Assembly: GCA_001600815.1 (NCBI GenBank)
Contig: BCKZ01000019.1
Location: forward strand, 249,981-313,980
Direction: 5' to 3'
From: Alloascoidea hylecoeti
Lineage: Eukaryota
DNA length: 64,000 nt
In this document: positions 4,465-42,928 of the stretch, in pieces
Layout of the letters: the number at the start of each line of letters is the position of its first letter
How positions within the stretch are numbered: position 1 is the first letter of the stretch
Translations under genes and position numbers: made by a program
Notes under the pieces: model-generated
Seen by the model: only the letters and a program-made list of their open reading frames with translations
Database searches by the model: none
What the model was told of the DNA's origin: nothing

Positions 4465-4797
4465 TTTTTTTTTTTAACTTTACATATAATTTCCAATTAA
4501 AATATCTAAATAATTTAAATCTTCTAACTAAAAACTATTAAGTTAAGGAAATTAATCCAAGAGTATAAAACCTCTGCTTCTTCTTTATTTTTATTTTTAT
4601 TTTTATTTTATTTTATTTTATTTTATTTTATTTTTTATCTCAAATATTTGGACAATCTTTCACATTTTTGCTGACATGTAGAATATATTTCACATAACCT
4701 AAGCTAAAAAGATGGACACATTATGCTTCTTCTGGATCTCTTTTGTAAGCTTTTTTTATTTGGTTCCACTGTTTCCAATTATCATCAGGGAAATTTA
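4465..4797 (-). mobile_element. 5'-truncated LINE fragment (family B) upstream of tRNA-Val
   Basis: Minus strand encodes NWKQWNQIKKAYKRDPEEA*CVHLFSLGYVKYILHV, homologous to about 42300-42420; ends ATGTAAAGTT+poly(A) like 42910-42928. Confidence 0.8.
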
Positions 4798-4850
4798 GGG
4801 TTTAACGTCTACGTATTATAATGTTAGAGAATTTTAAACTCAAAGTCACA

Positions 4851-4923
4851 GGTCTAGTGGTGTAACGGTTATCACGTCTCGTTTACACCGAGGAGGCTCC
4901 GAGTTCGATTCTCGGCTGGATCA
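4851..4923 (+). tRNA. tRNA-Val(UAC)
   Basis: Cloverleaf with anticodon arm TCTCG-TT TAC AC-CGAGG, T-loop GTTCGATT and downstream T runs. Confidence 0.95.
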
Positions 4924-5013
4924 CAATTGAAAGATAACAAGGTTCTTTATTCAAAACATTTTTTTCGATCATATTTTTTCATTAGCCCCTTCATTTCTTT
5001 TCATATTTATATA

Positions 5014-5481
5014 TGAAATTACAAAGAAAATATGGTTCTATAACCAAAAAGTGATAGAACTAAAAGAAAAGGAAATTGAAGTGAAATCTTTTCTTGATTT
5101 TAATCATAAGGAAAGAAAATATTTAAGAGCGGTAACCGTTTTTTTGGTTAGAAAATATCACCGAAGATATTATCAACAGGAGACTAGTTTATCAGTATCA
5201 CAATGGTGTAAAATGATTGAAAGGGACTCCACAAAGCTTTGTTCTAAATCACTTAGGTGCTATGGACAAAAAAAGAAAAGGAGGAAAGATGTATAAATAT
5301 TACATCCTTTATTCGTATTGATTGAGTAATAAGTTGGAAATGGTGGCAATAATACTATAAAATGTAACATTACTCAAAAAAGAGTGAACCTATAACATTA
5401 GTAATAGGTATTTTTGCCTAGTAATAGGTCTTTTTATTTTCACAATTTTTTGGTTGTTATAAAGCAGTTTAAAAAAAAAAA
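5014..5481 (+). mobile_element. LINE 3' end (family A) downstream of tRNA-Val
   Basis: Close match to the reverse complement of about 38835-39302 (ORF2 C-terminus plus 3'UTR); ends in an A tract at 5471-5481. Confidence 0.9.
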
Positions 5482-5489
5482 CTCTTCAC

Positions 5490-5830
5490 TCTCCGGGAGT
5501 GAATCAATCTACCTGGTAAATTATACAAATGTATCCTATGCTTACAAAACAGTTCTGAAACAGAATATGTTTAACAGTTGCTTACTGAAAACTATTAATA
5601 TTTAACTCACTTATTGGAAAAGATCTATGTTTGAATGATTTGATTTGTTCACCCTTAGAAGATTCTCAGTTTATAAAACACATAAGACTTAGTGTGATAG
5701 TAATATGGCAAATACGGGTCCTTAGACGCTCTAGTTCTATTGATTTAACATTGGAGTCCTCATCAATTATCAAATTGGCGAATATGGAAAAAAGAAAATT
5801 AATTCAAAAATTCAAATAAAGTAGATGATC
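5490..5830 (+). mobile_element. degenerate LINE ORF2 C-terminal fragment (family C)
   Basis: Encodes KCILCLQNSSETE (CCHC-finger start) and later VIWQIRV; resembles the KCILCLQP fragments at 37475-37860. Confidence 0.65.
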
Positions 5831-6583
5831 ACGTTAGATATGATCTCAGACTTGGTTTTACCGTACAGGTATTTAAACCGTTATTATATAAATATTTAAT
5901 AATTCTTTTTATCCTCTTATAGATTAGCTAGTATAATTTATACCGCTAATAAAACGACTAGGTAAAAAAAAAATCAGTTAAGAAGTGCGCGGGTTTGCTC
6001 TTATTCGATCTTTCTTTAGAATTGCAGCTTGACATTGATAGACAAGCTATTTCTACCATATCATCAAGCATCTCCGATTCAGAGGTATTGCGATTGGCAA
6101 CCACAGGTAACATCAGTTGAAATAAATGAAATATAAGGGTTTTAAAAAAAATTCAATAATAGTAGTTTACCAATGAAAAAAGGACCGTCAAGGAGAAAGG
6201 AAAAAGAAGAACTTTTGAATTTTTTAAAGAAATTTCAACTATTTTTGTCTATGCATATAGCATGTACGTAATATAAGTGTAAAAATATACAATATAGTTA
6301 TAGAGTAACTAATTGATAATAAGTATAATTAGCTATAAATTTTTAGTAAACAGCTTATATATATAGGCACTGATGATTAATCGGTAATAAACCAATTATA
6401 TAAGCACTAAAGTGTCATATTGTCATATATCAATAAAACAACAATAAATGATGAAAGATTTTAATTGAATCAGAAACTTTGTAATTGCAATTGGTGTTTT
6501 ATGTCACGTGTAGACGTAGGAGTCGATACACATCACACTCTGTGAAGAGAATACCAACCTGAGATTTTTCACGATTAATAAAA

Positions 6584-7570
6584 ATGTTTCGATTAGCAGT
6601 TCTCAAACGTCAATGTCTCTCGAAACCATGCCATTTAGCTTTAAAACCAACTGCTTATAGCTTATCTAGGAATTTTACTACTTCATATATCATACAAAAT
6701 AAGGAGATTAAAAAGGATGATTCCAAAATCCCTGATTCAACATCAAAATCATCAACACCATCCAATTCCGAAGAAGTAAACACTTCTGGATTTGATTTCA
6801 ATAAACCAAGAAAACCTCTTTCACGTGTTGCAATTGGAACAAAGATTGAAAAAGATACTGTAATTGAAAGAAGAGATCCATTAAGTGAAATGTTAAGTTG
6901 GAAAGCTGGTGTACTTTTCTTACTTGTTGGTTTTGGTTTAACATTATATTTCAATAAAGAAAAGAAACGATTAGCACTTGCAAAGGAAGAAGAAGAAAAT
7001 AGGGGATATGGTAAAGTTCTAGTCGGTGGTCCATTTAAATTAATAGATCATGATGGTAATGAATTTACAGAAAAGAAATTATTAGGTAAATTCTCATTAC
7101 TTTATTTTGGTTTCACCAGATGTCCTGATATTTGTCCTGATGAACTTGATAAAATGACAATTATCATTGATAATTTGAAAAAAGCAGGTATTGAGAATTT
7201 TCAACCAATTTTTGTAACTTGTGATCCTGCAAGAGATCCACCACAAGCTGTAAAAGATTATCTTTCTGAATTTCATCCTGATATTATTGGCTTAACAGGA
7301 ACTTATGAAGGTATTAAACACATGTGTAAGAAATATCGTGTCTATTTCTCGACTCCAAAGGATATTAAACCAGGTCAAGATTATTTAGTTGATCATTCTA
7401 TTTTCTTTTACTTAATGGATCCTGATGGAGAATTCATCGATGTTTTAGGAAGACAATACGAAGCTGATACAGCTACTGAAAAGATCAAGGAACATATTCA
7501 AAATTTTGTTCCTAAAGAAGAACGTGAGAAAAAGAAAAATAAGACTGGAATTTTTGGATTTTTTGGTTAA
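6584..7570 (+). CDS. SCO1: cytochrome c oxidase copper chaperone Sco1/2
   Basis: YFGFTRCPDICPDEL (CxxxC), DYLVDHSIFFYLMDP, single TM segment and mitochondrial presequence-like N-terminus. Confidence 0.95.
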   Translation: MFRLAVLKRQCLSKPCHLALKPTAYSLSRNFTTSYIIQNKEIKKDDSKIPDSTSKSSTPSNSEEVNTSGFDFNKPRKPLSRVAIGTKIEKDTVIERRDPLSEMLSWKAGVLFLLVGFGLTLYFNKEKKRLALAKEEEENRGYGKVLVGGPFKLIDHDGNEFTEKKLLGKFSLLYFGFTRCPDICPDELDKMTIIIDNLKKAGIENFQPIFVTCDPARDPPQAVKDYLSEFHPDIIGLTGTYEGIKHMCKKYRVYFSTPKDIKPGQDYLVDHSIFFYLMDPDGEFIDVLGRQYEADTATEKIKEHIQNFVPKEEREKKKNKTGIFGFFG

Positions 7571-8946
7571 TGGATGCTTCCAATAGCTTTAAAGATTTCA
7601 ATTCGTTTATATAGCAATAAATTCAAATACAACACTGTATATAATTTGATTATGATTAGTTTACAAATACAAATAAAGAACCCCATAGTTTAATGATTCC
7701 TTTTTTAAATTTTGTCTCTTGTTTCTGCCACACTACTTGTAAGTTATATGAATGAATTTGTTTTTCTATTAAAAGTTTAGAGGTATTAAACTATTTTGTT
7801 GCTCGGATTGTAAGACAACAAATGATTCACCTGTTAATGTTAAACTTCGTGTCAAATAATAGAGAAGGTAGAATGTTTATTAGGCTTGAAATGCTTTCGG
7901 CTGTCAGATAAGTTTTACCAAACATGGTGCCTTTATTAAAAGGGCGGCCAATATAGCGAAGGCCAAGAGTAAGTAATTATACAATTTGTCCTTCAATCAT
8001 CAAGATCCAGTGAGGGTATGCAAATTATAGAAAAGACCTATTGCACAACCAAGGCAATTTTTCCAGTTAGTTATAATATAAATTACTCTAATGATGAAAT
8101 ACTAATCAACTCAATCAACTAGAAAGGAACGAAAAAAAAAAAAAAGAAGGATTATCATACATGGTTCAACGTATTAATAGGATACAGGTGAAACTATTGA
8201 TTTTACTTAGATCTGAGTTTTTACTGATCATTGATTATTATTCTGAATACTAACTTATAAAGATGTTTATAACTACATTATAGGCCAATATAATGCTTAT
8301 CTATGTTCTTATCTTAAGATTTTCAAGAAGGGATGTCTAATTACTTCTATTTGAGATACTTAACTTATTAGTTTAGTAAGATGGAAATAAAATCTTTTTA
8401 TAATTAGGGTTACAAATTATATCACTATAATTATTCGTTCTATTCTTACAAAATCACTATAATCTTATAATGAGAATTGTTTTAAGTTTAAAGTCACATT
8501 TATAACTTATAGGATATAATAGAACAACACATTTCTGCACTCTTTGAGTTTAAACCTCATAGCCAGGAGAAAGGGTGACTGGAACTGCCAAACCAACAGC
8601 TGGAAAGCCAGTGATCTTCGGTGAGATCGTAGGAGTCTAACAGGAATATTGCAAAAAATTCTGAAGGAGAATACGCGATATTCGGCTGACAAAGTGATTT
8701 CAGGGAAACTAGTGTATGGAAACAAAAGAAGAGATTGTTAAAATTAAAAGAGGGATTACAGATTTAGATTTGTAAATCACAGATGACCAGTTTACATAAT
8801 GAAAGCTATCTTTTTCCTTTTCTTCTGATCATAATTTTAACGACCAAAGAATATCATATCAGTTAGTTATTATAAGCAATAGTAATAATATATTTTTTTC
8901 TTTTTAAACTAAATTAATTAACTAGATATAGATAACAATAATAAAT

Positions 8947-11673
8947 TCATGAAATTCCATCACTAACAGCTTTAGCTAATGATTCATTTTCAGCTCTTGC
9001 TTGAATTTTAACAGTAACACCATTTTTTGAACTATAAGCCATTTTAACAATAGCAGCAACTTTTTCACCATTAATTGATTTACCAAATAATTTAAGTGTA
9101 TGAGAAGCATTTGAAGTAGCTTCATCTGTACCTTCAACAGGAGTCATTGATAATAATTCAGTAATTCTAGAAATTGCTTCTTTTAAACTTGTAATTTCAG
9201 ATAAATTATACATTGCAACTTCACCCCCACTTAATTCATCAAAAGCATGGGTAAAATTACCAATATAAGATGGAGTAATAAAGTCACCAGCAGTTATATC
9301 AAGATCTTCAATTGGATATTCATCACTAAATCCTTCATCTGCTGGTTCACCAGTACTTGGATCAATTTCTTTTGTTGTAAAATTTATAACATTAGTGAAA
9401 GTACCAATTGAATAATCAGAAGATGACCTTTCAAAACTAACATAAACAATACCTTCTGAATTTGGATCAAGTCTTTCAATTGGTAAAATAAAACTTTCAA
9501 TATAATCATCATTATCAGGTTCAGCAAGTACTGAAACATCTTCTAAAATAGTATCAGTTAAAGTATTGCTAATATTAAATTGTAAAACTAAATGTTTTGA
9601 AAATAAATGTTTAACACAAGTAACATAAAATTCACTTTCTTTTTCAGTTAATTCATTTATTATTGAACTATTTAATAATTTTCCATAATTTGAAAAATTA
9701 TCAATTGATGTTAATTCATTAATATATTTTTGTGATTCTAAATCTCTTTTAATTGTTTTATCAGCAGAAGTTTCTTTCTTTTCAGTTTTAATAATTGGTG
9801 TAACAATTGTATTTGAAGTTTTTAATTTTAAACTTTCTTGTTTTGCTTGTTCATTTGAAATAATTGGTATATCTGAAATATCAAATTGAATAACAAATCC
9901 TGAACTATTACCTAAATAATTTGCAAGTTTATATTCTAAAACAGGTAAAGAATATTTTCCTTCAGGTAAAATAATATTTTTTGCATTTTCTTTTGAATTA
10001 TTATTTTCATCCAATAAATCTAAACATAATGCAGCTCTATCACGTACTTCATCATCAACATCATCTAAACTTCTTCTTAATAAAACTTTAATACTTTTAA
10101 CAATATCTTTATCATCAACAAGAGCAAATTTAGATAATGCAACAACAGCAGCAGCTCTAACAGTCGAATTTTCCAAAACAACTCGATTATAAATATAACG
10201 AATATACATATTTGGATTATGAGTATTTGGACCTTCTTGACCTAATAAATAAAGAATTCGAACGGCTAATTCAACATATTCACAATCTTCAATAAATTCA
10301 CATAAATGAGCTAAAGTTGTATCTCTTGATTCTGGAACAAATTTAATTAAATCAAATAATGATTCAACAACTGCATTTTTGAAATTATAACCACCCTCAT
10401 CTCTTAAAGAATCTGAAAAAAATCGAATCATACTTGAATGTTTTGATGGGAATTTTAAAGCTAATGATCTAATTGCATCAACAACAATAATTTTGAATTC
10501 ATCAGTAATTTCATCCATAAAACCAGAAATTTGTTTCATTAATCTATCAACACTATTTTCATTACCAGTTTTTAATAAAGTGGTAATTGCATAGGTTGCA
10601 ATTGATCTATTATTATCACTAATTAATGATTCTAATTCAATATTACAAACACTAACAATTTTTGAATGAGTTAATGAAAATTTATTTAAAATTCGAATTG
10701 CTGAAAATCTTGCAACAGTTCTTGGTGATGATAAAAATAATTGTAAAACATTAACAGCTGATGCAGCTTGTTTATCATTAACATTTTTAATTTCTAAAAT
10801 TGTTTTAGCAGCTTCTAAATCAACTGAATCTGCCTTATGTTTTAACCAACCCTCTAAAAATGGATATAAAGAATTTGAAAGACTTGGATCATCATCAAGA
10901 ATTTTAGCAATGAAACGAATCAACATAACGATTGCATTTGGACTACGTAGAGCATTTGCATTTGAAAATTGTTGAATAAATCTTAATAAAGCCATCTTAT
11001 CATGACTTCTTAAAGTATATAATAAACCAATTGCATGATATTGAGTCATTGGTTGAGAATTTTGCATATAACCATAACCATAAGAAGCTGGATAAGTTTT
11101 TTGAGCAAGTACAGCTTCTTGAGCTTCATTTGACCATCTTTTAACAACATCTTTTGCAACAGGAGAAAGATGATAGGAAGAAATCAAAGCTGCACTACTA
11201 ACAGCAGGAATTGAATCAACAATCGAATTTTTAATTAATCTTTCAATTGTTGGGATTGTTGAAGGATCAATTACTCTAATTAAACTCCTAATGGCATCAG
11301 GTTTATAAATAACATCACTTTTAACTTGGACATCTTTCATAATTGAACTTGTAACAATGAAAACATTAATGCCAACAGAACTTGCCAATTCTTTAATTAT
11401 TAATAGAACAATTTGTCGAAGACGTGGATCTTTATGTTGAAACAATTTAGAAATACCAAAAAATAAATTAGTTGCTTCGTTTTCAGGGAAAGTTTCACCA
11501 GTATAAAGTAAATTAAGTAATTTTGCTATTAATTGACGACTTTTTCTTGGTTGTATTGGAGTAATATTAAATACTTTTATACATTCTTGATAAACAGCCA
11601 TTTTATCTGGAGGACTTCCAGATTCTAAATCATCATTTTTCTTATAAGTTGAAGTAGACATTGTGATTTTCAT
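8947..11673 (-). CDS. SEC21: coatomer gamma subunit (start may be the ATG at 11661)
   Basis: 908 aa; LCEFIEDCEY, YIRYIYNRVVLEN and DDEVRDRA gamma-COP motifs. Confidence 0.95.
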   Translation of the reverse strand: MKITMSTSTYKKNDDLESGSPPDKMAVYQECIKVFNITPIQPRKSRQLIAKLLNLLYTGETFPENEATNLFFGISKLFQHKDPRLRQIVLLIIKELASSVGINVFIVTSSIMKDVQVKSDVIYKPDAIRSLIRVIDPSTIPTIERLIKNSIVDSIPAVSSAALISSYHLSPVAKDVVKRWSNEAQEAVLAQKTYPASYGYGYMQNSQPMTQYHAIGLLYTLRSHDKMALLRFIQQFSNANALRSPNAIVMLIRFIAKILDDDPSLSNSLYPFLEGWLKHKADSVDLEAAKTILEIKNVNDKQAASAVNVLQLFLSSPRTVARFSAIRILNKFSLTHSKIVSVCNIELESLISDNNRSIATYAITTLLKTGNENSVDRLMKQISGFMDEITDEFKIIVVDAIRSLALKFPSKHSSMIRFFSDSLRDEGGYNFKNAVVESLFDLIKFVPESRDTTLAHLCEFIEDCEYVELAVRILYLLGQEGPNTHNPNMYIRYIYNRVVLENSTVRAAAVVALSKFALVDDKDIVKSIKVLLRRSLDDVDDEVRDRAALCLDLLDENNNSKENAKNIILPEGKYSLPVLEYKLANYLGNSSGFVIQFDISDIPIISNEQAKQESLKLKTSNTIVTPIIKTEKKETSADKTIKRDLESQKYINELTSIDNFSNYGKLLNSSIINELTEKESEFYVTCVKHLFSKHLVLQFNISNTLTDTILEDVSVLAEPDNDDYIESFILPIERLDPNSEGIVYVSFERSSSDYSIGTFTNVINFTTKEIDPSTGEPADEGFSDEYPIEDLDITAGDFITPSYIGNFTHAFDELSGGEVAMYNLSEITSLKEAISRITELLSMTPVEGTDEATSNASHTLKLFGKSINGEKVAAIVKMAYSSKNGVTVKIQARAENESLAKAVSDGIS

Positions 11674-12159
11674 CTAATTATTTGTATTGTGTTGGTTTTT
11701 ATCAATAATTAGAGATATACAAATTAGTCCACGTGTCAGATAAACAATTTGAATCAGATCAGTTGTTTATATAAAATAAGAGCACACACTACCGAAAAAA
11801 AGACTTTCCAAGTACCAATTTAAACAAATAAAAGTGCGTAGCTGCTTAAAAGATCTGGTAAATACTGACAAATACTGCTTTGTTGGCAGTTTGGGAGGTT
11901 TAGAATCTAAACGAAGAGGCCGGGTAACTACGGTGCCTGGAGGTCATGTGATCACAAATGACCACTGTCAATTCATCAAACGTTATCATAGTTCATGATA
12001 CATGAACTGACGAATATTAATTTTGATCTCATACAATGACAATTAATATATTTATATAAGACATTATATCCGCTGTTTTTTTTTTACTTTTACTTGTATA
12101 TATATAAACTAATCAATTTATTTTAATTACTGTTTTATACAAATTTAAAATTTACTAAA

Positions 12160-12687
12160 ATGAACTCTACAACTGAACCAACTAGTACTCAACAAATTCA
12201 AACTCCAGAGAAAGTGGGAACAAATGTTAGTGATGGCTCGCCTTGTGAGGAAATCACAGATCGTCGTCATCACAAACGAAGTTTGGTACAATTACAATAT
12301 CATATCGATAATATATCTACCAATGGCAGTAAATACCCAGAAACCGTAGGTAATACTCTCAATGATTATATCCTTAGTAAAAGTAATGTTCAAAGTGAAT
12401 ATTGTTATCCACCAGCAACTACGGTCAGTCAAGACAAATATTCGTTTGGTGGACAATTGCAAGGTGATAAAAGTGCATTTAACAATAATATTGGGATCGG
12501 TGTTGGATCTAAACCTCGAGATGATTATCAATCATCAGCTGGAAATAACTATACAACCGCCACTATCAATAATGGTAATGATAGTTATAATCCATATAAG
12601 GGAAGAGATATTAATAAAAATGATAACTCAAACCGCATTGAAAATTCAAGACAAAAATATGTTAACGAAGATTCTCGAAGATATTAA
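12160..12687 (+). CDS. hypothetical Asn-rich hydrophilic protein, 175 aa
   Basis: ATG in AAAATG context, TATA-like elements upstream, host codon usage; no family recognised. Confidence 0.65.
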   Translation: MNSTTEPTSTQQIQTPEKVGTNVSDGSPCEEITDRRHHKRSLVQLQYHIDNISTNGSKYPETVGNTLNDYILSKSNVQSEYCYPPATTVSQDKYSFGGQLQGDKSAFNNNIGIGVGSKPRDDYQSSAGNNYTTATINNGNDSYNPYKGRDINKNDNSNRIENSRQKYVNEDSRRY

Positions 12688-14169
12688 CGCTTAATTTATA
12701 AAGGCTAACGAAGATAATCATAATTAATAATATTTAATATAAATCATATGTATCATACTATAGTATAATAATATTTCATAATCGTACAACTATTCACTGT
12801 TTGATCCAATTAAATTCCTGTATCACTTCATATCACCGAATATGTAATACATGGCTTGGCCGAAACTAAGTGTAAATGCTGTATAAACTGCATGATGACA
12901 TATTCTGCATCTGTGTGCCAACGTTTCCTATAATGTACGCCAAAATGCCATATGACCTCTTGTCGTTCAAGACAGGATGAACCAATTGGCGTCCAACATT
13001 TCCTTTTCTGTTGATCCCCACCTTCTTGGAACCTGTAATGAATATTCTGGGCCTTATTGAGATGTTTGCATGTGTGTGGGTGCTCGGTTAATATTCTTGT
13101 TACTTTTTAGATTGATGATTCGTTAAATTCACCAATTAATCTACAAAATTGATTTGAAATCCGTTGATATTTTCCAATGCAATTGATTAATATTAGAAAA
13201 AATGAATTAGAAAGCTCATAATCATAATTTTTTAATGTGATCGTAGCTGTAATTACACCTCCATGATTTCATTAATTGCAATGCTAAGGATAAGTGCAAT
13301 CTTGATAATCCCCATCATACCTGAATTAACTCTACCATTTAATTTTTCCAGTGAGTGTTTTACGGGGCTCAGGTACATACAGTAGATGAGCAGCCCTCGC
13401 AGAAATCGAATATTCTTTCATGAAATCGGCCAACCATTTCATATACCTGTATATTTTTTATCAGTCTCTTCGGCGGGACCTTCGTATACAATAGGCGTAT
13501 TTTTAGCCGGTTTAATTAAGTTTTTGAATGTTATATACCAGTTATTTTTTGAAACTCAAGAATTCAAGCCGTCTGTCATACGCAATGCATTGATCATGAT
13601 ATTGCTGCAAAATTTCTCTTCTACTCTATATTTTACAATAACATTGCAATGATCTGCCGAAGGAATAGCTTCATTTATTCGATATAAATTCTTCTATATC
13701 TCAACAGTTTGACCATAAGTAGAGTCAGACTCATATTCTTTTTATTATTATAACTATTAGGAGATCATACATTTTTGATGTATTAATATAGAATTGTTTG
13801 TTATAATACTCCATTTTCTCGTTGCATCAAAATGTAACGTTTTGCTTTGTTTTATTAAACTTTACGATTGGATGATTTTTATTTATTTATTATATATATA
13901 TATATCTATTGCTTAGGGAAGATGTGGGAATAACGAAGCTCTTTTGCAATCTTGTTATGGGATCCTTTAGAGTTCAGCCGTGCGAAAATAGTGTCACCTC
14001 TAACAAACTTTTTAGGAGACCAAACATGGTCAAGAAATGTGTACAAATTAATCTATTTGTTGTGGTTAAAGATCAATTTGAATATATATGTAATTATTTA
14101 CCTACATCATCAATATTAATTGCAATTTACTTTTCAAAATTCAAGGTATTAAAACAAGAAAAAAGAAAA

Positions 14170-26903: not shown

Positions 26904-27622
26904 TGATTACATAGATGTGTTGAAGATAAGTTTAAGAGGTGTTTTTAATTGAAGGTCTTAAGAGGTTTTTGTGTACCAACATAACATTTAATGCTACATC
27001 ATGTAGCAGTTAAGAATTTTGCAATATTTCTGTGACATAAACAGTTATTATAGAACTGTGAAATTTTCTTATACTTATATGAAAATCACAGAGATTTCTG
27101 AATGATTTCACCAAAGACAATTCCTTCTGATTAAACGAAATTTACTATGTCCACACTCCACATCTAGAGCCAGGTATAAGCTTATAATTTTGAATAAATT
27201 GATGGAATTTAATGTATGATTTAACCCCACCTGAATATATCAAAAAGTTATTACTGATTGGGTCTATTTTATGTGAATATAATGTCAACAAAATCACAAC
27301 TTAATATTAGAATATTCGAATGTTGATATCCTTAGTAACTTGATACATTATACCTAGCTATATAGTATATATTAATAGATATAGCAATACCATGGTAGAA
27401 TATAGGGCTTTATAATTTAAATTTAAATTTATATACAATAAGAGTCAGTGTAGTACTAAATATGACCTTTTATCACAAACAGAGTTCTAGAAGTAAAACA
27501 TGCATATATAATTGTTAGTTTGGTGATAAGTTTAGAACCTTCAAGTAGATCACTTAAAACTAAATCTTTTGTGTGAATCAACGTTACACCAAATAGACGG
27601 TGAGGACTTTCTACATTGAGGC

Positions 27623-27662
<40 letters not shown>

Positions 27663-27858: not shown

Positions 27859-27884
27859 TATGTAATTAATTGTACAATAGTTTG

Positions 27885-29106: not shown

Positions 29107-30213
<1,107 letters not shown>

Positions 30214-32869: not shown

Positions 32870-33923
32870 GCTGAATCATTTGCCATGACTCTTAAATACC
32901 ACAATGTCTATGCAAAATCATTCACCGTGAAACCGGCCATTATTTCGAAGTATCCCAATGTTCATGTCGAATCATTCACCATGCCCTTTACTTTTCCTAA
33001 TGTTTATACCAAATCATTCACTATTGTTTCTAAATTTCCAAATGTTTATATCAAACCATTTACCATTATCCATAAATATCCCAATGTTCTTGCCGAATAA
33101 TTCTTCATGGCTACAGCTTTTCCAAATATTGATGCTAAGCTATTCACTATTGTTTCTAAACTCCCCATTAACAATATCTTCGGTAAATGTGGTTATAAAT
33201 CGTATGCATTTACTTGTACAATGAATTTTCATTATTCTATTATTAATCTTAGACGTTTCGAATCCACTAAAGAAACAATTTCTAAATATTTATACCCAAA
33301 TATAAATGACAATATTAAGCGGCTCAAATACATCCTTGTTCCACCACCTCTTACGAGGAGAAAACATTTCAATTCAATTCAAAAGAAGAACAACAAATTC
33401 TTCATTTATTAAAAAATATTTATATTGGCTCAAAGCAAAGAAATATTCATACTGCTTTTAATAATACTGATTACAAATCAAATTTATTATTACCTCTGAT
33501 TGATTTAATCGAGTTGAAGGGAGTTAAAATCGCCTTTGAAGTAGTGGTCGAGGATTTTCCGCCCTTATTATTACAGTTAATTGACTTAACAGAAGAGGAT
33601 ATGTTAACTTACTTCTCAATGATATTTTAGAACCAGGGTTGAAATTGGTTTCTGAACCATCTAATTACTCATATTTAATAATCATCGATAAGGAATCATA
33701 ACTTTATGACGTAGAAATGGTTAATGATGGTATCGATTTGGTTATTGATTCTACGATTAAAATTACTTCAATTTCAAAAGAAGTACTTGAATTTCTTCAC
33801 AAAAACTTAATCGATGATAAATCAGATATGTATTTTGGAATTGTTGATCATTATCAAATTGACAGGATAATAGTTGAGATTATGGCACTTGGAATGAGAA
33901 GTAAAATTAAGAGCTCAGATTAA
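32870..33923 (+). pseudogene. disrupted gene containing ~12-13-aa tandem repeats (K[YF]PNVxxxSFT)
   Basis: ORFs 32885-33100 and 33107-33412 are in the same frame, separated by one TAA; about 6 repeat units; further coding-like fragments to 33923. Confidence 0.5.
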
Positions 33924-34131: not shown

Positions 34132-34183
34132 ATAAGACACATTCGGCAAATGGCCAAATAAGACACATTCGGCAAATGGCCAA
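34132..34183. repeat. 26-bp perfect tandem duplication
   Basis: ataagacacattcggcaaatggccaa x2. Confidence 0.9.
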
Positions 34184-34564
34184 ATGTGGCTGCGCTATTT
34201 GTAGATCACTAATATTTGTGATTGTTGAAGAGTATAGTATATCCGTATGTGACTTAATTCAATTTCACGCAGTTTTAAACAGTTATCACATTGTCAATAG
34301 GAACAAATTAACACTACGTGAGCAATCAATGGATCATAGTCTTTTTGAATATACGTGATGAGATTGTACAAGCCGTCTCAAGTTCTTGATCCTTATACGT
34401 AGATTCTTGGTAATGGATAAAGATAACATGCAAAGTTGGTTCAAACCACTTACAAATATGAATAGAAAAAATGACACATTTCAATTTCTGGAGTAGAAAA
34501 CGATATAGCTATTATAGATCCAAAATAGATTATAATACATAATAATATCTACTTCTTCTTATGA

Positions 34565-36310
34565 TTATTCCAAAAAGTTCGGGATATTTTTGATACAATC
34601 TTCTTTTGTACCATTTGGATTTTCTAACTGCCAACCAATAATTTTTTCTAAGATTGTTTTCATCCATGGACCAGGTTTTTTACCAGTAATTTTAGAAATA
34701 TCTTTCCCATCAATTAATTGCTTTAATTTCCATGATTCTTGTAATTTTTCATTATGTATATAATCTAATAAGCTTTCATATTGTTGAATAATTAAATCAA
34801 TTGAATCATCATTATTATTTGTGATATCTATAATAAGACTGTATGTTATAAATATAATCCATTTTTCACCAAGTTCTTTAATTAATAAACCAACTGATCT
34901 CCTTGTAAAAGATAGTTTTGATATTGAAGGATCAGAGTTTATAATATCTGATACTTTTGATTTATGAGAAATTATTTTATGAACCAATTCAGAATCATTT
35001 TTACCAAAATTTAAAGTTGATTTAATTATTGTAATAATAGCAGGAATTTTTTTATTTTTATTATCAATAATATTTATTAAATCCCATGGTTTCAATAAAA
35101 TTGATAATAATAATAATCTTTTATATTCATTATTAATTTTAAATATTTTAAAATATTTTAAATGATTTAAAGATAATAAATTATTATTTATTAATTTAAT
35201 TGATTTTTCTAAATATAATGATGTTTTAATTAAAGATATTTTATAATTTGAAGGAATTGTTTTTATATTTTCATTTGGTAATTTAAAAATTAAATTATAA
35301 TAATTAATTTCATTAATTATTGAAATACCAAAATCAGAATTAGAATTTTTTAAAATTTTCTCTATTTCTATTCCAATTCTTTCATTACTTATTTTTTTAA
35401 TGAAAGAAGATTTAATTTCATCTAATTTCATTGTATTAATCGATTCATTATCAATTTTAAAATTAAATCTTGTTGAAAATCTAATCATTCTTAAAATTCT
35501 TAATGGATCATCTTTAAACATAATGAAAGGATTTAAAGTTGTTTTTAATAAATTATTTTTTAAATCTTTTAAACCATTTTTAGTAAAATCTTCAATTTTA
35601 GAATTATTTAAATTATAAAATAATGAATTTATTGTAAAATCTCTTCTAAATGAATCTTGTTTTGCTGTTCCGAATTTCATAATTGGTATTCTTGATTTAT
35701 TATTATATTTTTCAAATCTTAAATTAACAAAATCAATTGATTGATTATATAATTCAATTGTTGTTGTTTCTAAATGTTTTGATTTTTCTGGATTCTCTTT
35801 TAATAATAAAGCATTTGAATGTGATTGTGAATTTTGAAATACATTTGGATACTTATCAAAATTTTCATTAATATAATCAATTAAAATTGACACAAACTGA
35901 TGTCCAGTCATTATATTTAAAGAAATATCAATATCATTAGATTCAAGACCAAGAAGTTTATCACGAACCCAACCACCAGTTATCCGAAGTTCCAAATCTT
36001 GATCAAAATCAATAGTTTCTGTATTATTCTCGTCGGTTCCATCAGCATTATGATATATGGAATCAGGATCAATATTAAGATTGTTTTTCATATCATCATC
36101 AATACTATTATTATATTTGTCTGTTGAAACTTTTGGAAGTTTAAAACGAGAATCTTTTAAATGTTTAGTAAAATCAAGTAGTAGGTTTTTGATCTTTATT
36201 TCAGTTTCAGTCAATTTGATATTTATATCCACCTTCCTTGCTAAAAGAGTATGATTACTCTCTAATTTAGTTTTATAATAATAATCATTATTATTGATCC
36301 GGTTATTCAT
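34565..36310 (-). CDS. CCA1: tRNA nucleotidyltransferase (CCA-adding enzyme); first ATG at 36310, frame open further upstream
   Basis: GGWVRDKLLG..DID, NPEKSKHLET, RRDFTINSLFYN, DDPLR and KPGPW motifs. Confidence 0.92.
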   Translation of the reverse strand: MNNRINNNDYYYKTKLESNHTLLARKVDINIKLTETEIKIKNLLLDFTKHLKDSRFKLPKVSTDKYNNSIDDDMKNNLNIDPDSIYHNADGTDENNTETIDFDQDLELRITGGWVRDKLLGLESNDIDISLNIMTGHQFVSILIDYINENFDKYPNVFQNSQSHSNALLLKENPEKSKHLETTTIELYNQSIDFVNLRFEKYNNKSRIPIMKFGTAKQDSFRRDFTINSLFYNLNNSKIEDFTKNGLKDLKNNLLKTTLNPFIMFKDDPLRILRMIRFSTRFNFKIDNESINTMKLDEIKSSFIKKISNERIGIEIEKILKNSNSDFGISIINEINYYNLIFKLPNENIKTIPSNYKISLIKTSLYLEKSIKLINNNLLSLNHLKYFKIFKINNEYKRLLLLSILLKPWDLINIIDNKNKKIPAIITIIKSTLNFGKNDSELVHKIISHKSKVSDIINSDPSISKLSFTRRSVGLLIKELGEKWIIFITYSLIIDITNNNDDSIDLIIQQYESLLDYIHNEKLQESWKLKQLIDGKDISKITGKKPGPWMKTILEKIIGWQLENPNGTKEDCIKNIPNFLE

Positions 36311-37129
36311 TTTGTTAATAGAATTTGTAGAATTGAAATGATGTTGATTTAATGTTATTAGATGGTCAATCGACACAACTTTCAACCCTGATGCTGATGG
36401 TTTAATTAATGAATAATGAGGAAACGGAGGAATTCCCCTTAATTTTTGAAATCTTTTTAATTTGATAATTGAAATTTTTGATAAGATATAAAAATAAGTT
36501 TATTTAAATCAAAAATGGAAATGTTTCACTTTTTCAAACATCCTTTCATTTTTTTTAATTCTTGCCATTTAAAATTATGTGCCATATAAACTAATATAAT
36601 GTATTCAATTGTTCCAAATCTTCTTTTCCTTCGCAAATCATTTTGTTTAGCTAGTGATCTTTTCCAATGAAATGTATGATTTTCTTAGTTTTGCAATGAT
36701 TGAATATGTGTTTTTCCAATCTACTTCATTTTTTAGTCGATTTGAAAGTATCCTTCTATCTTTTTATTTATTTTTTCTTTTTATAATAAGTAAGATATCT
36801 ATTGACTCAATAATCTAATATTGCTGAACGATTCCTGGAGGTCTACCCCATTGCCATTCCATATCATCTTTCCAATTTGTTAAGTCGTTAAAAGCTCTCG
36901 AGTATACGCTCCATCTTTTATTTTCATGTATTTGTAGTGATCCTTTACGATGCATTGATAATTTTCGTGTTGTTTGATTGTAATCTGCTTTGTATCTATT
37001 TTGCAAAACCCTTAACATTAACAGCCCAATCATCCTTAAAATATTTTGAATTATCATTTACTAAAGCTTCTTATGACTGATTTTAATCTCTATGCGAGTA
37101 TAACATACAGGAGGATATAGAGAGGTGGC

Positions 37130-37660
37130 TATTAAGTCAAAAATCACCAAATCAAATACGATGGGGAAAACACCTGCAAGCTTACCTTGAAACAACAAAA
37201 ACAGAGAAACCCACATAAAATAAACACCATCAACCCTATACTTGACGAATATAGCATTAAGACACTATGATCAATTGGAAGATCAGCCGATCATACCAAA
37301 CTAACACATCTAAAGGAACGTAATACAAAGGATTGGAAAGAATGGTGGGTCACATTATATCGAATGAATAAGAGGGAACCAGGATCGGTAGATTTCATTC
37401 ACAGGTTAAATCCCCGACATCACACTCATCACTGGAGTCCTACTTCATCGGAGCACAAGAATGGTAATCTAGATAAATGCATCTTATGCTTACAACCACG
37501 GGTATAAACTGAAGAACATACACTCAACAATTGGCAAACTATAACAACACTGTTCTGTTGTGCATACTTTGTTTATAACCAGGAATAGGAACAGAGGAGC
37601 ATATTTTTAGTCATTGTGAAATTAAGACAATGATATTAATAAGATTAATGGGTAATGATA
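37130..37660 (+). mobile_element. degenerate LINE ORF2 C-terminal fragments (family C-like)
   Basis: WKEWWVTLYRMNKREPGSVDFIHRLN, KCILCLQP and CILCL*PGIGTEEHIFSHC (CCHC finger). Confidence 0.65.
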
Positions 37661-37664
37661 TATT

Positions 37665-38215
37665 TGTACTCTAAGTTGTATTCCAAATTATTTCATGTAG
37701 CTCAGCTCTTTAATTATTAAATGATTTCTATCTTGGGACAAATTACATCTTCCAATGTTACATCATTACCCATTAATCTTATTAATATCACTGTCTTAAT
37801 TTCACAATGATTAAAAATATGCTCCTCTGTTCCTATTCCTGGTTATAAACAAAGTATGTATTTATTCAAAGAACCATTTGAATATTTTATTGATTTAAAT
37901 TCCTGCTGATGTGAAAAGTTCCTAAGATTCAATCTGTGGATAAAATCCGCTGTTAAAGGGTCTTTTTATGAAAATTTTCTATGATTTTCCACCGAACCTC
38001 TCCTTTGGTGCCTGTATTTATTTTTATTTAACCGATTTGGTATGATTGGTTCCAGTGTCTGGTTAAAGCGATTACCAGCTTGTCGGAAAGAAAGTAGTGT
38101 TCTCTAACGGCATAGCATGATTAGCATCCCATGTTTTCACGTTTTCACAAAATTCATAAGCGGCGTGTTCGTCTAAACTTGGTATTATTTGATTTGCTAA
38201 CTTCACTTCATCCAC
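37665..38215 (-). mobile_element. degenerate LINE ORF2 C-terminal fragment (family C-like)
   Basis: KDPLTADFIHRLNL followed by ILCL*PGIGTEEHIFNHCEIKT on the minus strand. Confidence 0.65.
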
Positions 38216-38250
38216 AATTGTAGATTATAAAAAAGTTTATAATAGAAGTG

Positions 38251-38640
38251 TTTTTTTTTTCAGGTGGCCTAGGTTGGGCGCTGCATGGGATGATTCCCTG
38301 CTTGAGAAGTTGCTGATAGGGAGCTATTTATTTGATATGACCCCAAATAGAGCATAAACAACCCTCCCGACCCTCCTAGGACCCCCTAAACCTAGTGATG
38401 ATTCCAATCTGAATCCCTCAGACGTGATCTCTGACTCAATTCAATTTTGTAAACAAATGGCAAAAGAAAGAAACGAGATCATAGCACTTCCTTATCACAT
38501 TCTAAATCCACGCTCGCAGCTGAACTTATTGTTTTCTGAAAGCAATTCGGAAATGGTTTTGCTCAAATACATAACATTTACGTATCACGAGCTCCTCTTC
38601 ATACACAACTCCTGAAATCGAAAGATCCGTTATTTCGTGG
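38251..38640 (-). mobile_element. probable LINE 3' end with poly(A), related to family A
   Basis: Ends GGCCACCTG+A10, similar to the family A terminus AGCCACTTG+A tract at about 38803-38819. Confidence 0.5.
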
Positions 38641-38651
38641 TTCGTGGGTAA

Positions 38652-38790
38652 TCAAGTGACCATTAAGGCTCTATATTAAACTGCTTTTTCTATAAATACT
38701 ATATTTATAACCAAAAAATTGTGAAAATAAAAAGACCTATTGCTAATGTTATAGGTTCACTCTTTTTTGAGTAATGTTGTTACATTTTAT
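38652..38790 (-). mobile_element. second copy of the family A 3'UTR
   Basis: Near-duplicate of 38811-38950. Confidence 0.8.
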
Positions 38791-41625
38791 TTTATTTTTT
38801 TATTTTTTTTCAAGTGGCTATTAAGGCTGTATATTAAACTGCTTTTTCTATAAATACCAAAAATTGTGAAAATAAAAAGACCTATTACTAGGCAAAAATA
38901 CCTCTTACTAATGTTAGAGGTTCACTCTTTTTTGAGTAATGTTGTTACTTTTTATAGTATTATTGTCACCATTTCCACCTTCTTACTCAATTAATACGAG
39001 TAAAGAATGTCTCATGTATACATCTTTCCTATTTTTTTTTTTTTTTTCCACAGCACCTAAGTGATTCAGAACAAAGCTTTGTGGAGTCTCTTTCAATCAT
39101 ATTACTCCATTGAGATGCTGATAAACTATTCTCCTGTTGATAGTATCTTCTGTGATATTTTCTAACTAAAAAAACGGTTACCGCTCTTACTATTAATTTT
39201 TTTCTTTCCTTATGATTAAGTCAAGGAAAGATTTCACTTCAATTTCTTTTTCTTTTAGATCTACACTTTTTGGTTAGAGGACCATATTTTCTTTGTAATT
39301 TCACATGTAGAGAATACATGTTCAAAGGATAATTCAAATTTATCATAGCAAGGACACCTTTTGTCTTTGAGGTTGTTGTAAAAATGTAAAAATAAACCAC
39401 TGCAGAATATTTGATAATCATCTATAACGTTTGATAGATAAAGGTTGTTTTTATGGATAATTTTCCATAGCAAACCCCATTTATTGACACCAATTTTGTA
39501 GGTTTTTTCCAATTCATATGGTATTAATACTTTTTGATTATTTGCTTTGCAAATGCTCCTCCAATTGAATTTGTCGAGTATTTCATTTTGTAAACCAATA
39601 AAGTCCTCTACGTTCAAACTTTGGGAGTTTGCTGCTTTATCTATCAATTCCATGGAATGAATGAAATCTTTAATAGACCGTAGACTTTTATTTTTAATAA
39701 ATTGTATGCTTATGTCACCAACTGTTGTGGTTTCCCAGAAATGGGATAAGTATGTGTTCCAGGGCTGGATTATTTTTAGATTTTGTTTGAAGTATTGAAG
39801 GTATTGCACATTTGCTGTCGAGAAATTTTCATGAAGATACTTATTATTGATTATTAGCATTTGATCCCAATCCAGGTGTAATAAATTATCATTTTTAGCA
39901 TTTTTTCCTTTTTCTATTATTTTATTTGCTAGTATTGAAGCTTTAACTCCATGATATATCATTTGTTCCCTGATTGTGATTTGGAGGTCATCATCTTCAT
40001 TGGTTAGCAAGGATGATAAATGATAGGGATGTCGGCCTTTCTGTTGAACCATTAGGTCTATCAGACCATAACCTCCACTCATTGCTGGGGTTGTTAATAC
40101 TTTGAGCGATACTTGTCCATATGTGCCTATATTATTTTTAATTATTTTCATAATTTTGTTCAAGATACTTTTTGGGGGTAGAATAAATTCCATCAGAAAA
40201 AGCATCTTGGACATCACGTATATATTTACTATTATGCACCTGGTTCTTATGTTATTATGGTGGTGAAATAGATATATCAATCTTGATTTAATATTTTTTA
40301 TCATCTCTTCCCAGATTATTCCGGGGTTAACTCCTCTACCCATTGATATTCCCAGATATTTGAAACTATTAACGACTTTATACTTGTTTAATGGTGATTG
40401 ATTACTTATAGATCGTTTGGAGTCCATTGGAAAGTATATTTTTGTTTTCCCATCATTAACCACCGATCCAGATGAACGTTTGTAAAGAGATAATGCCCTA
40501 TCAAGGACGTCTTTGTCGTTTCTGGAATTTATAAATATTGAAAGGTCATTGGCAAATAAGCTCACTTTAAGCGAGCGGATGTTTTTTTTTTTGCAGATAT
40601 AGAGACACCTTCAAGGTTGAGTTGTAAGTATTGAGATAACGGTTCGATCGCCAAAGCGAATAAACTAGGTGCAATAGGGCTGCCTTGGCGCAGCCCAGAC
40701 CGTAACAGGAATGATCTGGACTGGACGCCGTTTATTAGCACCGATCCTGTTTGGTTTGTGATGGACCCCATAACAGCTTTTATAAAATGAGGACCCAGGC
40801 CTAAATGATCAAGAACTCTGTGTATGTATGAGGCCTATCATATCGTAGGCCTTTTGGAAGTCCACCAGTACGAGCGCCTGGTGTGGGTTACGGGTAATAA
40901 ATTTAGTATCTAGATCAATGAATAACTAGCTAAGGTGAATATTGGTCGATATAGATCTCCCAGGAATAAAGGCTGTTTGGTGTTCTGACACAATTCCTTT
41001 TAGTACTGATTGGAGTCTAATGTTTAAAATCTGGTGCAGGATTCTTATATCTGAGTTTAGGAGAGAAATAGGGCGATATCCATTTATGTCACCTTTTTTG
41101 GCCTTATCCTTCAGTAATACAAAAACAGTATATGTCATAAAATTAGGAATCTCATCTGTCAGCATAGAGTTTGAAATTTTCAAAAAATCATCTTTTATAA
41201 AATTAAAAGCTTGCTTATAAAAGAAAGTTCCAATACCGTCCTGACCTGGGACACTATCTCGATTAGATCGGACAATTGCGTTCCAAAGCTCATTTAAGGT
41301 GATAGGGTAGTTTAGATGCATCAGATCATTGGATATCAGATGGCCGGGTTCGAAGGATGAGAATAATTGTGTTATAGCTCTATCGTCAATTTCCTTTTCA
41401 TGAAACACTTTTTAGGAAAGATATTCAACAACTATATTTTCCATTTCGCAATGATCATTCCATCCATTAAGTGAGGCTATTTCCATCCTTTTTGTCCGAT
41501 ATTTTTGGAGACGTAACAGGTCATTTAATGATTGCCCTTGAATGTTAGTTTTTGTTATAAGTTGAGCTTTTTCTAATTTATTTAGATTTAAGGACCAGAC
41601 CCCTTTATTCTTAAGTATAAAAGTC
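38790..41625 (-). mobile_element. 5'-truncated, frameshifted non-LTR retrotransposon (L1-clade-like, family A): RT, CCHC finger, 3'UTR and A-rich tail
   Basis: PGQDG, YRPISLLNSD, QTAFIPGRSI, DFQKAYD, GLRQGSPIAPSLF, FAND (YADD position), FKYLG, GGYGL and CPC…EHVFSTC motifs; endonuclease region absent. Confidence 0.92.
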
Positions 41626-41627
41626 AG

Positions 41628-41692
41628 TTATTGCCACCATTTCCAACTTCCTACCTTACCAAAAAGTTATGAAAATAATAAGACCTAATGTT
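41628..41692 (-). mobile_element. short rearranged family A 3'UTR remnant
   Basis: ttattgccaccatttccaactt and gaaaataataagacctaatgtt match 5331-5352 (reverse complement) and 38868-38980. Confidence 0.65.
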
Positions 41693-41750
41693 TAACATCG
41701 CAGTGCAGGCTATTCTCACCTTAATAAAAGAAGGAAGATGAAGGAAAAAA

Positions 41751-41822
41751 CTCCGATGCGGGGAATCGAACCCCGAACTGCCCGGTGAAAGCGGACCGTG
41801 CTAGCCGTTACACTACATCGGA
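41751..41822 (-). tRNA. tRNA-Glu(UUC)
   Basis: Reverse complement TCCGATG…GTCCG-CT TTC AC-CGGGC…GGTTCGATTCCCCGCATCGGAG followed by a T6 terminator. Confidence 0.95.
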
Positions 41823-41859
41823 TTACCTGAAGTCCAAATTCAACTCACTTTTAGCAGTG

Positions 41860-42928
41860 ATCTATATGGTTAGGAAGAAAGTTTCAACAATAAGAAGATT
41901 GCTCAACTATAAGAATTCTAAAGAAGATGATGTTAGGAAGCGATAGAATTGGGATCAAAATTATTGATCATAAATCCAAAAGATAATCATATAGAAAAAA
42001 ATGGGGCTTTTATCAAAAAGGCACTAGAGCTAAGGAAAAATATTAGATTTGCAGGGACCAACCACCACAAATATTAAATGAGATTGATTGGGGGATTCTA
42101 ATATCTAAAAACTTAATAAAAAAAATTTACTTTTAAGGTGGTCGTCTAGGTTCATGTCAACCCTGAATCAATAAAAAGATTTAGGGATCTAAAGAATAAA
42201 GAATTATCAAATAATTCTATTAAAACGATTAATAAGAAATTTTACAACAATGAAAAGAGAGTACTAAAACCGAACTATTTTTTGACAATCTAAAAGAAGA
42301 AAATTGGCAAAAATGGGGGAGTCATATTAAAAAATCATACAAAAGAGACCCTGAAGAAACACAATGGATTCACTTTTTCAGCTTAGGATACGTGAAACAT
42401 ATGTTTCATATTAACAAAAATGCAAAAGAGTGGTGGCATAAATTAGGTATATGTAGTCTTTGTCAAAATGGAAAAGATGATATTTATCATTTATTTGAAG
42501 ACTGTAACACAACCAGAATATTACACAAAAATATACTAGGAGACAAAAGTATAGGAAACAAAAATCTAATAATAGATACACAAGATAATAATATAAAAAA
42601 AGAAAGGCCTTTTCATCTCAAAGGTGTTAGAAATTAGGAAAAGTATCAAATTTGGAGGAACACCACCCGAAAACCTAAATGAAATAGATTGGGGTATCTT
42701 ATTTTCAAAATATTTAAGATAACATTATAAAATAAAAATACATACCGAAAATAAAATAAGCAAAGTGGTAAGAAAAAGAGATATAATAAAAACAAATAAG
42801 AAGAGAAATGAGAGAGAAATAAAGAAGAAGAAGAAGAGGTTTTACACGCATTGAGTGATTTCCTCAATTTAATAATAGAATATTTAAAATTAATTAGATA
42901 TTTTAAATTATGTAAAGCTAAAAAAAAA
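41860..42928 (+). mobile_element. 5'-truncated LINE fragment (family B) upstream of tRNA-Glu
   Basis: NWQKWGSHIKKSYKRDPEETQWIHFFSLGYVKH…CSLCQNGKDDIYHLFEDC (CCHC finger); ends ATGTAAAGCT+A9; 5' boundary approximate. Confidence 0.8.

Follow-up and report, generated by a model that had tools for sequence, protein, structure and literature searches.

LINE remnants on both sides of two tRNA genes

The DNA considered here is a 64 kb stretch of contig BCKZ01000019.1, an AT-rich sequence (G+C approximately 30%) referred to below as the window, in which the anatomy of long interspersed nuclear element (LINE) remnants was read at both tRNA genes and across the remainder. ARAGORN and Rfam agree on exactly two tRNA genes, tRNA-Val(TAC) at 4851..4924 on the forward strand (Rfam RF00005, 59.2 bits), followed some 40 nt later by a run of seven T residues, and tRNA-Glu(TTC) at 41751..41822 on the reverse strand (58.9 bits), which is succeeded directly by a T6 terminator. 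At both of these genes fragments of one L1-like LINE family, here termed family B, lie upstream, and fragments of another, family A, lie downstream, all of them 5′-truncated and dead. Family B is oriented opposite to the tRNA and family A in the same direction as the tRNA, and in every tRNA-proximal copy the 5′ end is turned toward the tRNA gene and the poly(A) end away from it. The 5′ ends of family B are situated 54 bp upstream of tRNA-Val (measured from a candidate target-site duplication) and 71 bp upstream of tRNA-Glu, while the 5′ junctions of family A are found 83 bp downstream of tRNA-Val and approximately 63, 96 and 122 bp downstream of tRNA-Glu. Side and family thus coincide throughout, with four of four B fragments upstream and four of four A fragments downstream.

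An earlier note on this DNA had proposed just such a single architecture, with family B upstream and pointing away from the tRNA and family A downstream in the same orientation, and this arrangement indeed recurs at two of two loci. The peptide (W..W..IKK.YKRDPEE…H.FSLGYVK) and the terminus (ATGTAAAGYT followed by poly(A)) that it attributed to the B copies are both present, and its remark that neither family was seen elsewhere in the 64 kb agrees with BLAST, by which, simple AT-rich repeats aside, A and B have no other match in the window. Its picture of the tRNA-Glu locus was an over-simplification. The B material, taken as one copy about 40 bp from the tRNA, is family B but comprises three pieces, with the junction at 41893/41894, 71 bp away; the A material, taken as one copy at 38790-41692, is family A but consists of a 2.8-kb copy nested in an older A copy, plus a further scrap of A. 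Similarly, families A and B are real but the count of two LINE families is too low, since the window holds at least four, one of which (family D) is not near a tRNA gene.

The tRNA-Val locus

Upstream of tRNA-Val lies a 5′-truncated family B 3′ end with an internal deletion (B_Val, 4465..4788, reverse strand), whose 5′ end faces the tRNA and whose terminus reads ATGTAAAGTT followed by A11. In BLAST its blocks 4467-4632 and 4653-4786 (reverse strand) match 42928-42770 and 42432-42296 (forward strand) of the longest B copy at tRNA-Glu, B2, with 71-74% identity, and the shared peptide is apparent in its translation. Adjoining its 5′ end, positions 4789..4796 (reverse strand) carry AAATTTCC, to be compared with AAAATTCC at 4461-4468 beside the poly(A); as a candidate target-site duplication this pair is short, being 8 nt long with 7 of 8 positions matching, and constitutes modest evidence.

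Downstream, the family A 3′ end (Val_A, 5008..5481, forward strand) consists of 3′ untranslated region (UTR) and a tail of A11, and its positions 5008-5472 match 39309-38834 (reverse strand) of the tRNA-Glu copy with 88% identity over 479 bp. Judged by identity between the two loci (71-74% versus 88%), family B is older than family A. Approximately 30 bp past the tail of Val_A begins a 3′ fragment of a third, A-like LINE family (C_Val, 5513..5975, forward strand), which has the orientation of tRNA-Val, a zinc knuckle (KCILCLQ...) and a tail of A10 at 5966-5975, and which is identified by tblastx and blastn matches to 37462-37513 and 36618-36668 together with a weak LINE-profile match (E 0.24). 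Once Val_A is subtracted, the 5′ end of C_Val would fall at approximately 115 bp after tRNA-Val, and Val_A accordingly has the appearance of a repeat insertion at one spot. The spacer of tRNA-Val was also considered as possible family C sequence and rejected, its similarity score being 23 against a shuffled mean of 25.

The tRNA-Glu locus

Contigs from four public runs were placed on an 8-kb stretch at a likeness of at least 80%, with 237-333 contigs per run falling on it, and the points at which they diverge from the window help to delimit the copies at tRNA-Glu. On the upstream side the copy next to the tRNA, B1 (41894..42125, forward strand), is a C-terminal coding-end fragment of a diverged B subfamily, recognised by alignment to B2 and oriented opposite to tRNA-Glu. 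Other contigs of B1 type diverge at 41894 and 42114, from which it follows that B1 starts 71 bp from the tRNA and lacks the usual 3′ UTR. Similarity of 41861-41893 to B2 was taken as chance, since contigs of other B copies diverge at 41894. B2 itself (42237..42928, forward strand, start approximate) is the longest B copy, with a zinc-knuckle open reading frame (ORF) at 42254-42634, a 3′ UTR and the terminus ATGTAAAGCT followed by A9; its 5′ boundary lies somewhere between 42126 and 42254, and its assignment draws on a zf-RVT match (E 0.0016), a LINE-profile match (E 1.3e-9) and tblastn matches to P0019 and P0013. Adjoining its poly(A) is B3 (42930..43013, forward strand), an 84-bp terminal fragment of another B copy with an A-rich tail of its own, which aligns to the 3′ ends of B2 and B_Val. 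The three copies thus stand head to tail in one orientation, each later copy abutting the tRNA-proximal end of the earlier one, the kind of stacking to be expected if insertion recurred at a constant distance from the tRNA.

The downstream side is occupied by an array of family A, all on the reverse strand. Nearest the tRNA, starting approximately 63 bp after it, is a scrap of 31 nt of family A 3′ UTR (A_old1, 41657..41687), whose alignment to 38884-38855 spans 31 columns, of which 28 are identical, 2 mismatched and 1 gapped. There follows the proximal part of an older, short A copy (A_old2, 41628..41654; 5′ junction 96 bp after tRNA-Glu), which aligns to 38986-38960 and is in register again at 38785, where its distal part (38652..38785) resumes and runs to the canonical A terminus ...GGTCACTTGA, as seen both in alignment and in the repeat families D6 and D9. 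Because the two parts are in register across 41628/38785, the 2.8-kb copy between them (A1, 38786..41627) is inserted into the older one, 27 bp inside it. A1, with its 5′ junction 122-123 bp after tRNA-Glu, is truncated at approximately residue 380 of ORF2, retains reverse transcriptase and a C-terminal zinc knuckle with at least four frame breaks, and ends in 3′ UTR, its body extending from 41627 to 38810 and being followed by an A-rich tail; it is identified by RVT_1 and by tblastn and profile matches to positions 413-1076 of a 1151-position hidden Markov model. Contigs of other genomic copies run on past 41629, and others stop at 38652 and then continue as poly(A), which confirms respectively the truncation point of A1 and the terminus of the family.

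Three further observations concern this region. Between the A array and debris of family C lies a single-copy, G+C-richer segment of approximately 790 bp (37860-38650) with no Pfam or Rfam match. A contig of single-copy depth joins sequence similar to that up to 37932 to the 3′ end of a tRNA-Glu gene (41749) in four of four runs, skipping 3816 bp, with a shorter side of 30 letters; it could represent either a further tRNA-Glu locus whose flank is alike, or an allele without the A array and 700 bp besides. Other contig joints have sides of 20-31 letters, for example 41822>42993 and 38682>42072.

Identity and relatives of the elements

The tRNA-Glu copy of family A yields two RVT_1 matches (E 1.3e-7, 31.9 bits against a cut-off of 29.6; and E 2.2e-4) and, with a LINE profile built from 47 full-length relatives, matches at E 6e-66, 2.7e-40 and 4.5e-27. 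It aligns to approximately residues 380-1100 of proteins of about 1180 aa that carry endonuclease, reverse transcriptase and zf-RVT domains, that is, the APE-RT-zinc-finger type. Families B, C and D retain only the region after the reverse transcriptase. The zf-RVT scores of B2 (19.5 bits) and D (26.3 bits) are under the Pfam cut-off of 27.5; A, B2, C and D all show a C..C...H....C motif, with profile matches across positions 988-1098, and the zinc knuckles of A and C are closer to each other than to that of B. An APE-type endonuclease (Exo_endo_phos or Exo_endo_phos_2) is found in five of the nine full-length relatives scanned, the window copies all being truncated past that region. Tails of A11 on Val_A and on B_Val, A9 on B2 and A10 on C_Val complete the picture. 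Judged on this sequence evidence, A and B are remnants of L1-like (putatively APE-type) non-LTR (long terminal repeat) retrotransposons of a budding yeast, and C probably is as well; the earlier description of the elements as L1-like LINE remnants is accordingly upheld.

Other classes of element leave no trace here. Pfam scans of the window elements and flank ORFs gave no RNase H match, and none of the 76 flank ORFs matched integrase, RNase H, protease or gag families, so that the debris does not stem from Ty-like elements. Among longer proteins, searches based on words returned nothing for A or B, which is weak evidence; a sequence search of solved structures with the 449-aa ORF of family A gave no match at E up to 0.01; and matches in the protein atlas were confined to generic RVT_1/zf-RVT clusters. 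An exact 25-nt pattern of family A was absent from metagenome, viral and prokaryote-genome collections, while in a protein-guided metagenome scan none of the 592 pattern matches was confirmed as a further copy.

Copy number and chance

Within the genome families A and B are multi-copy. Relative to the flanks, the summed contig depth, which is not a copy number, is 13-22x over the 3′ end of A, dropping toward its 5′ end as expected for 5′-truncated copies; read with the same caution, it reaches 27-31x over B1 (the highest bin) and is approximately 4-5x over the 3′ half of B2.

Could the association with tRNA genes have arisen by chance? Approximately 42.5 kb of the window lies outside ORFs of at least 150 aa, and the window as a whole contains 300 TTAAAA sites, so that neither space nor sites of endonuclease type would have been limiting; runs of A8 or T8 number 131. 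Counting seven primary insertions (A, B and C at both loci, and D), five of the seven fall within 125 bp of a tRNA end, for which a uniform null gives approximately 1e-8. The proximity to tRNA genes is therefore firmly non-random, and a strict rule of side and orientation is supported but rests on few events.

Probable guidance of integration by the Pol III complex

The orientation of the copies itself constrains the mode of insertion. With the 5′ end proximal and the poly(A) end distal, the nick that supplied the primer for target-primed reverse transcription was presumably distal and cDNA synthesis proceeded toward the tRNA gene, a configuration which fits a particle held at the RNA polymerase III (Pol III) complex. 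We also considered the T-run of the Pol III terminator as a primer for family A, an idea that was discarded because such copies would be turned the other way round and have their poly(A) end beside the tRNA. L1-type endonucleases prefer TTTT/AA, and the local cut sites look A/T-rich.

The best explanation, and in our judgement a probable one, which rests on two loci, is LINE integration guided by the Pol III complex in the manner of the TRE5 and TRE3 elements of dictyostelids. On this model the ribonucleoprotein of the element would be held by the Pol III transcription complex on the tRNA gene, its endonuclease would nick an A/T-rich site at a fixed short distance from the gene, and target-primed reverse transcription would then run back toward it. 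The B lineage would act on the upstream (TFIIIB) side, approximately 50-70 bp from the mature 5′ end and in opposite orientation, and the A/C lineage on the downstream (TFIIIC/terminator) side, approximately 60-125 bp from the 3′ end and in the same orientation, repeat hits at one distance giving rise to head-to-tail stacks and nested copies. Tethering by a Pol III factor, and the extension of the pattern to a genome-wide rule, would follow from this model. A larger proposal, whose chances we would regard as evenly balanced, is that one lineage of budding yeasts gave rise to two Pol III-directed LINE lineages of its own, B on the upstream (TFIIIB) side and A/C downstream, both reverse-transcribing toward the tRNA and both independent of the dictyostelid TREs; independence of origin is suggested by the distance between the hosts and by the approximately 30% identity to the nearest proteins.

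Several findings weigh against guidance by Pol III, the behaviour of families C and D among them. At tRNA-Glu, rearranged debris of family C (C_Glu, 36600..37860, mixed strands) was detected by profile (E 2.2e-5 and 0.57), by tblastx and by an inverted repeat, I2; it comprises pieces at 37271-37662 (forward), 37700-37858 (reverse) and 36618-36668 (reverse). It lies approximately 0.8-1 kb beyond the tRNA even after the A array is subtracted, outside the TRE3-like range of 40-150 bp, and its largest piece points the opposite way; no hidden Pol III gene is revealed in its vicinity by Rfam at E up to 1. Family D, represented by a zinc knuckle (CWLCSKDPESTEHLISDC) at 58499..58771 on the forward strand (zf-RVT E 1.2e-5; LINE profile E 2.1e-7), lies in a stretch of 2.8 kb free of genes, the nearest tRNA being 16.7 kb away, and Rfam at E up to 1 gives no match in 56200-59400 around it, so that by this search no Pol III gene is present within 2 kb. 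The LINE remnants of this genome, then, do not all sit at tRNA genes. The statistical case is likewise limited, for only two tRNA loci were examined and, once proximity is granted, A plus B would agree in side and orientation at the second locus with a chance of 1/16, the figure of 1/4096 applying only when each of the eight A and B fragments is an independent event, a condition that stacked copies may fail. To this may be added that no clear target-site duplication is seen at Val_A, A1 or B1, the 8-nt candidate at B_Val being the only one; that every copy is truncated and broken, with no full-length A, B or C, ORF1, endonuclease or intact ORF2 recovered; and that an exhaustive HMMER search produced four short fragments at 69-82% identity, the best full-length proteins being approximately 30% identical.

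The inverted repeat in the C debris (37563-37662 and 37759-37858, 100 nt, 97% complementary, 96-nt loop) is of separate interest. It could reflect 5′ inversion at LINE insertion (twin priming) or a later palindrome, and the bin containing it has approximately twice the flanking contig depth.

Alternative explanations

The main rival invokes DNA replication. Forks pause at yeast tRNA genes and human L1 has a lagging-strand bias; if nicking or priming by LINEs favoured the lagging-strand template at forks stalled by tRNA genes, any LINE family could accumulate on both sides, pointing away from the gene, without contact with Pol III. The mirror symmetry of the copies, 5′ end proximal and poly(A) distal on both sides, is indeed what lagging-strand priming at converging forks may be expected to produce. 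A process blind to family does not, however, predict that four of four B fragments should be upstream and four of four A fragments downstream, an outcome with a chance of approximately 1/64 (less strict if stacked copies are non-independent), and the tight distance windows suggest a molecular ruler; we consider this model unlikely. Passive survival, in which LINEs inserted at random and selection spared the copies in harmless DNA beside tRNA genes, is in our estimation distinctly unlikely. The flanks of tRNA genes are classic safe havens according to the available text of one study (PMC5006619), and all copies in the window are old and dead, but with approximately 42.5 kb outside long ORFs A and B are found only at tRNAs, and selection leaves unexplained a fixed orientation, a fixed side and head-to-tail stacking at one distance. 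Very unlikely, too, is targeting driven by sequence alone, with A/T-rich or poly(A) tracts as the preferred sites, as in Candida Zorro3, and self-nesting in A-rich tails building up the clusters. Zorro3 inserts into poly(A) tracts according to the portion of the source at hand (PMC7175516); the point of entry of A1 into an older A copy is A/T-rich and directly follows ...GGCAATAA, and the candidate target of B_Val starts with a run of A. Unlike those of Zorro3, the 5′ junctions lack flanking poly(A), the 5′ flanks ending in ...TTTATATA at Val_A, ...AAATTTCC at B_Val and ...CAACAATAA at B1 without a poly(A) tract; moreover only tRNA flanks are used among the 300 TTAAAA sites and 131 A8/T8 runs of the window, and new B copies abut the proximal end of older ones and not their A-rich tails.

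Two further possibilities would dispense with targeted insertion altogether. Superficially, the succession of tRNA-Val, 83 bp and a LINE tail of 474 bp ending in poly(A), which share one orientation, resembles a short interspersed nuclear element (SINE), and one might imagine a chimera or read-through product in which a tRNA head is joined to a LINE 3′ tail. The structure that defines a tRNA-derived SINE, a tRNA head continuous with the LINE tail in one Pol III transcript, is absent here: tRNA and element are separated by terminators (T6 at Glu, T7 at Val), the copy at Glu measures 2.8 kb and carries a reverse transcriptase, the two tRNAs are different and full-scoring, and family B lies upstream in antisense, all of which makes this reading extremely improbable. 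The equal order of elements at both loci could, in principle, also reflect a single segmental duplication, which the earlier note had itself named as incompatible with its proposal. We regard this as practically excluded, for one tRNA is Val and the other Glu, spacers and flanks are unrelated, BLAST finds similarity in the elements only, the points of truncation are not the same, and A has diverged by 12% against 26-34% in B.

Comparison with known systems

Pol III-guided integration of LINEs, the reading that we prefer, has its closest counterparts in social amoebae. As set out in the available text of a 2018 review (PMC5911963), TRE5 elements insert 40-54 bp upstream of tRNA genes in opposite orientation and TRE3 elements 40-150 bp downstream in the same orientation; the ORF1 protein of TRE5-A binds TFIIIB, and targeting by TRE5-A needs the B box and TFIIIC; and NLTR-B lies 39-64 bp upstream of tRNA genes. 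Family B resembles TRE5 (TRE5-A/B/C of D. discoideum, L1-type) in its upstream position, its opposite orientation and a 5′ end facing the tRNA, and its placement at two of two loci is TRE5-like by the working definition of Spaller et al. 2016, although of its distances of 54 and 71 bp the latter, at tRNA-Glu, is outside the TRE5 range and above the upper end for NLTR-B. The ORF2 of APE-RT-zinc-finger type that characterises TRE5 is also present in relatives of family B. The host is, however, an amoeba in the one case and a budding yeast in the other, and ORF1, A-module and C-module are not visible in the truncated yeast copies. Family A similarly recalls TRE3 (TRE3-A to D), lying downstream in the same orientation at 83 bp (Val_A) and at 63, 96 and 122 bp (Glu), within the 40-150 bp of TRE3, as does C_Val at approximately 115 bp without Val_A; a difference is that no external B box is known in yeast. 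TRE3 and TRE5 may hit one tRNA gene from both sides, as has happened to 13% of D. discoideum tRNA genes according to the accessible part of one survey (PMC5006619), and likewise both yeast tRNA genes are flanked on both sides. The geometry that the earlier note had likened to TRE5 upstream and TRE3 downstream is thus found at both tRNA genes of the window.

A parallel to family B of a different kind is NLTR-B of Polysphondylium pallidum, a non-TRE LINE upstream of tRNA genes, which shows that an upstream tRNA preference has evolved more than once; from what the source at hand conveys it has RNase H in place of a zinc finger, whereas the yeast families A and B have a zinc knuckle. Within the same host group, Zorro3 (Candida albicans), Ylli (Yarrowia lipolytica) and Ace/Bri/Can (Scheffersomyces stipitis) are, on the partial texts available, likewise L1-like, with poly(A) tails and frequent 5′ truncation. 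Of these, Zorro3 targets poly(A) tracts, which do not flank the 5′ junctions of Val_A, B_Val and B1 here, and Zorro1 and Zorro2 are subtelomeric (PMC7175516); in the accessible portions of the respective papers no tRNA association is reported for Ylli (PMC5014426) or for Ace/Bri/Can (PMC8546629). The yeast elements that do land at Pol III genes, namely Ty1-Ty4 of Saccharomyces together with Tca8/beta, Tyl3, Ylt1, Tyl6 and Tj1, are, so far as the consulted excerpts indicate, LTR elements that are integrase-based and all upstream of the tRNA, in contrast to the families here, which are LINEs and occupy both sides.

It is to LTR elements such as Ty1-Ty4 that the tRNA niche in yeasts has so far been assigned. 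In the table of elements beside tRNA genes in the 2018 review, as far as the available text extends, the yeasts are represented by LTR elements only and every non-LTR entry (TRE5, TRE3, NLTR-A, NLTR-B) is dictyostelid; the same text has retrotransposon insertion downstream of tRNA genes confined to dictyostelids and states that the target specificity of fungal LINEs was not yet worked out (PMC5911963). TRE-like elements were found only in dictyostelids by Spaller et al. 2016, again going by the accessible part of that paper (PMC5006619). A full-text literature search, with subscription journals and supplements outside its reach, found no description of tRNA-targeted non-LTR elements in fungi, in agreement with the earlier remark that none was known to its author. 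If the pattern is what it appears to be, these would be the first tRNA-targeted non-LTR retrotransposons in fungi and, outside dictyostelids, the first of all retrotransposons to insert on the downstream side of such genes. They would present a strong case of convergent 'safe-site' integration in which the Pol III complex can steer target-primed reverse transcription in fungi too, and would allow the way in which LINEs read TFIIIB or TFIIIC to be studied by yeast genetics and with the yeast Pol III structures, which are well described. Should the pattern not hold genome-wide, no more would be left than an unremarkable cluster of dead LINE fragments.

The host and the remainder of the window

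The housekeeping genes of the window encode coatomer gamma, fumarase, the CCA-adding enzyme, eIF2B delta and an MFS transporter. Against PDB entry 1yfm the fumarase reaches 797 bits, compared with 704 bits for the best mitochondrial fumarate hydratase entries; for eIF2B delta the best score is 393 bits, with 6i3m, followed by 328 with 5b04 and 240 with the entries after that. We assume that 1yfm and 6i3m are Saccharomyces cerevisiae proteins, that 5b04 is from Schizosaccharomyces pombe and that the remaining entries are human. From this protein similarity we take the host to be a budding yeast (Saccharomycotina), and the earlier supposition of a yeast host finds support in the same comparison. 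Three isolate runs, all from one organism, contain the DNA of the window as well, as does a wood-decay metagenome.

Some features of the window merit brief mention. ORFs of at least 150 aa fill only 33.5% of it, which is low for a budding yeast, and CTG codons are very rare, with eight in 15 long ORFs, the one in fumarase standing at a conserved Leu. Comparison of 27205-27564 with 53031-53387 (inverted) shows a decayed partial duplicate, at 66-75% identity, of the eIF2B-delta gene (53261-54766), covering its 3′ end and the flank downstream, which looks like a gene relic of an old segmental duplication. Finally, tandem repeats occur at 3538-3600, upstream of B_Val (a 17-nt unit, three copies), and at 32937-33178 (an array with a 42-nt period, four copies).

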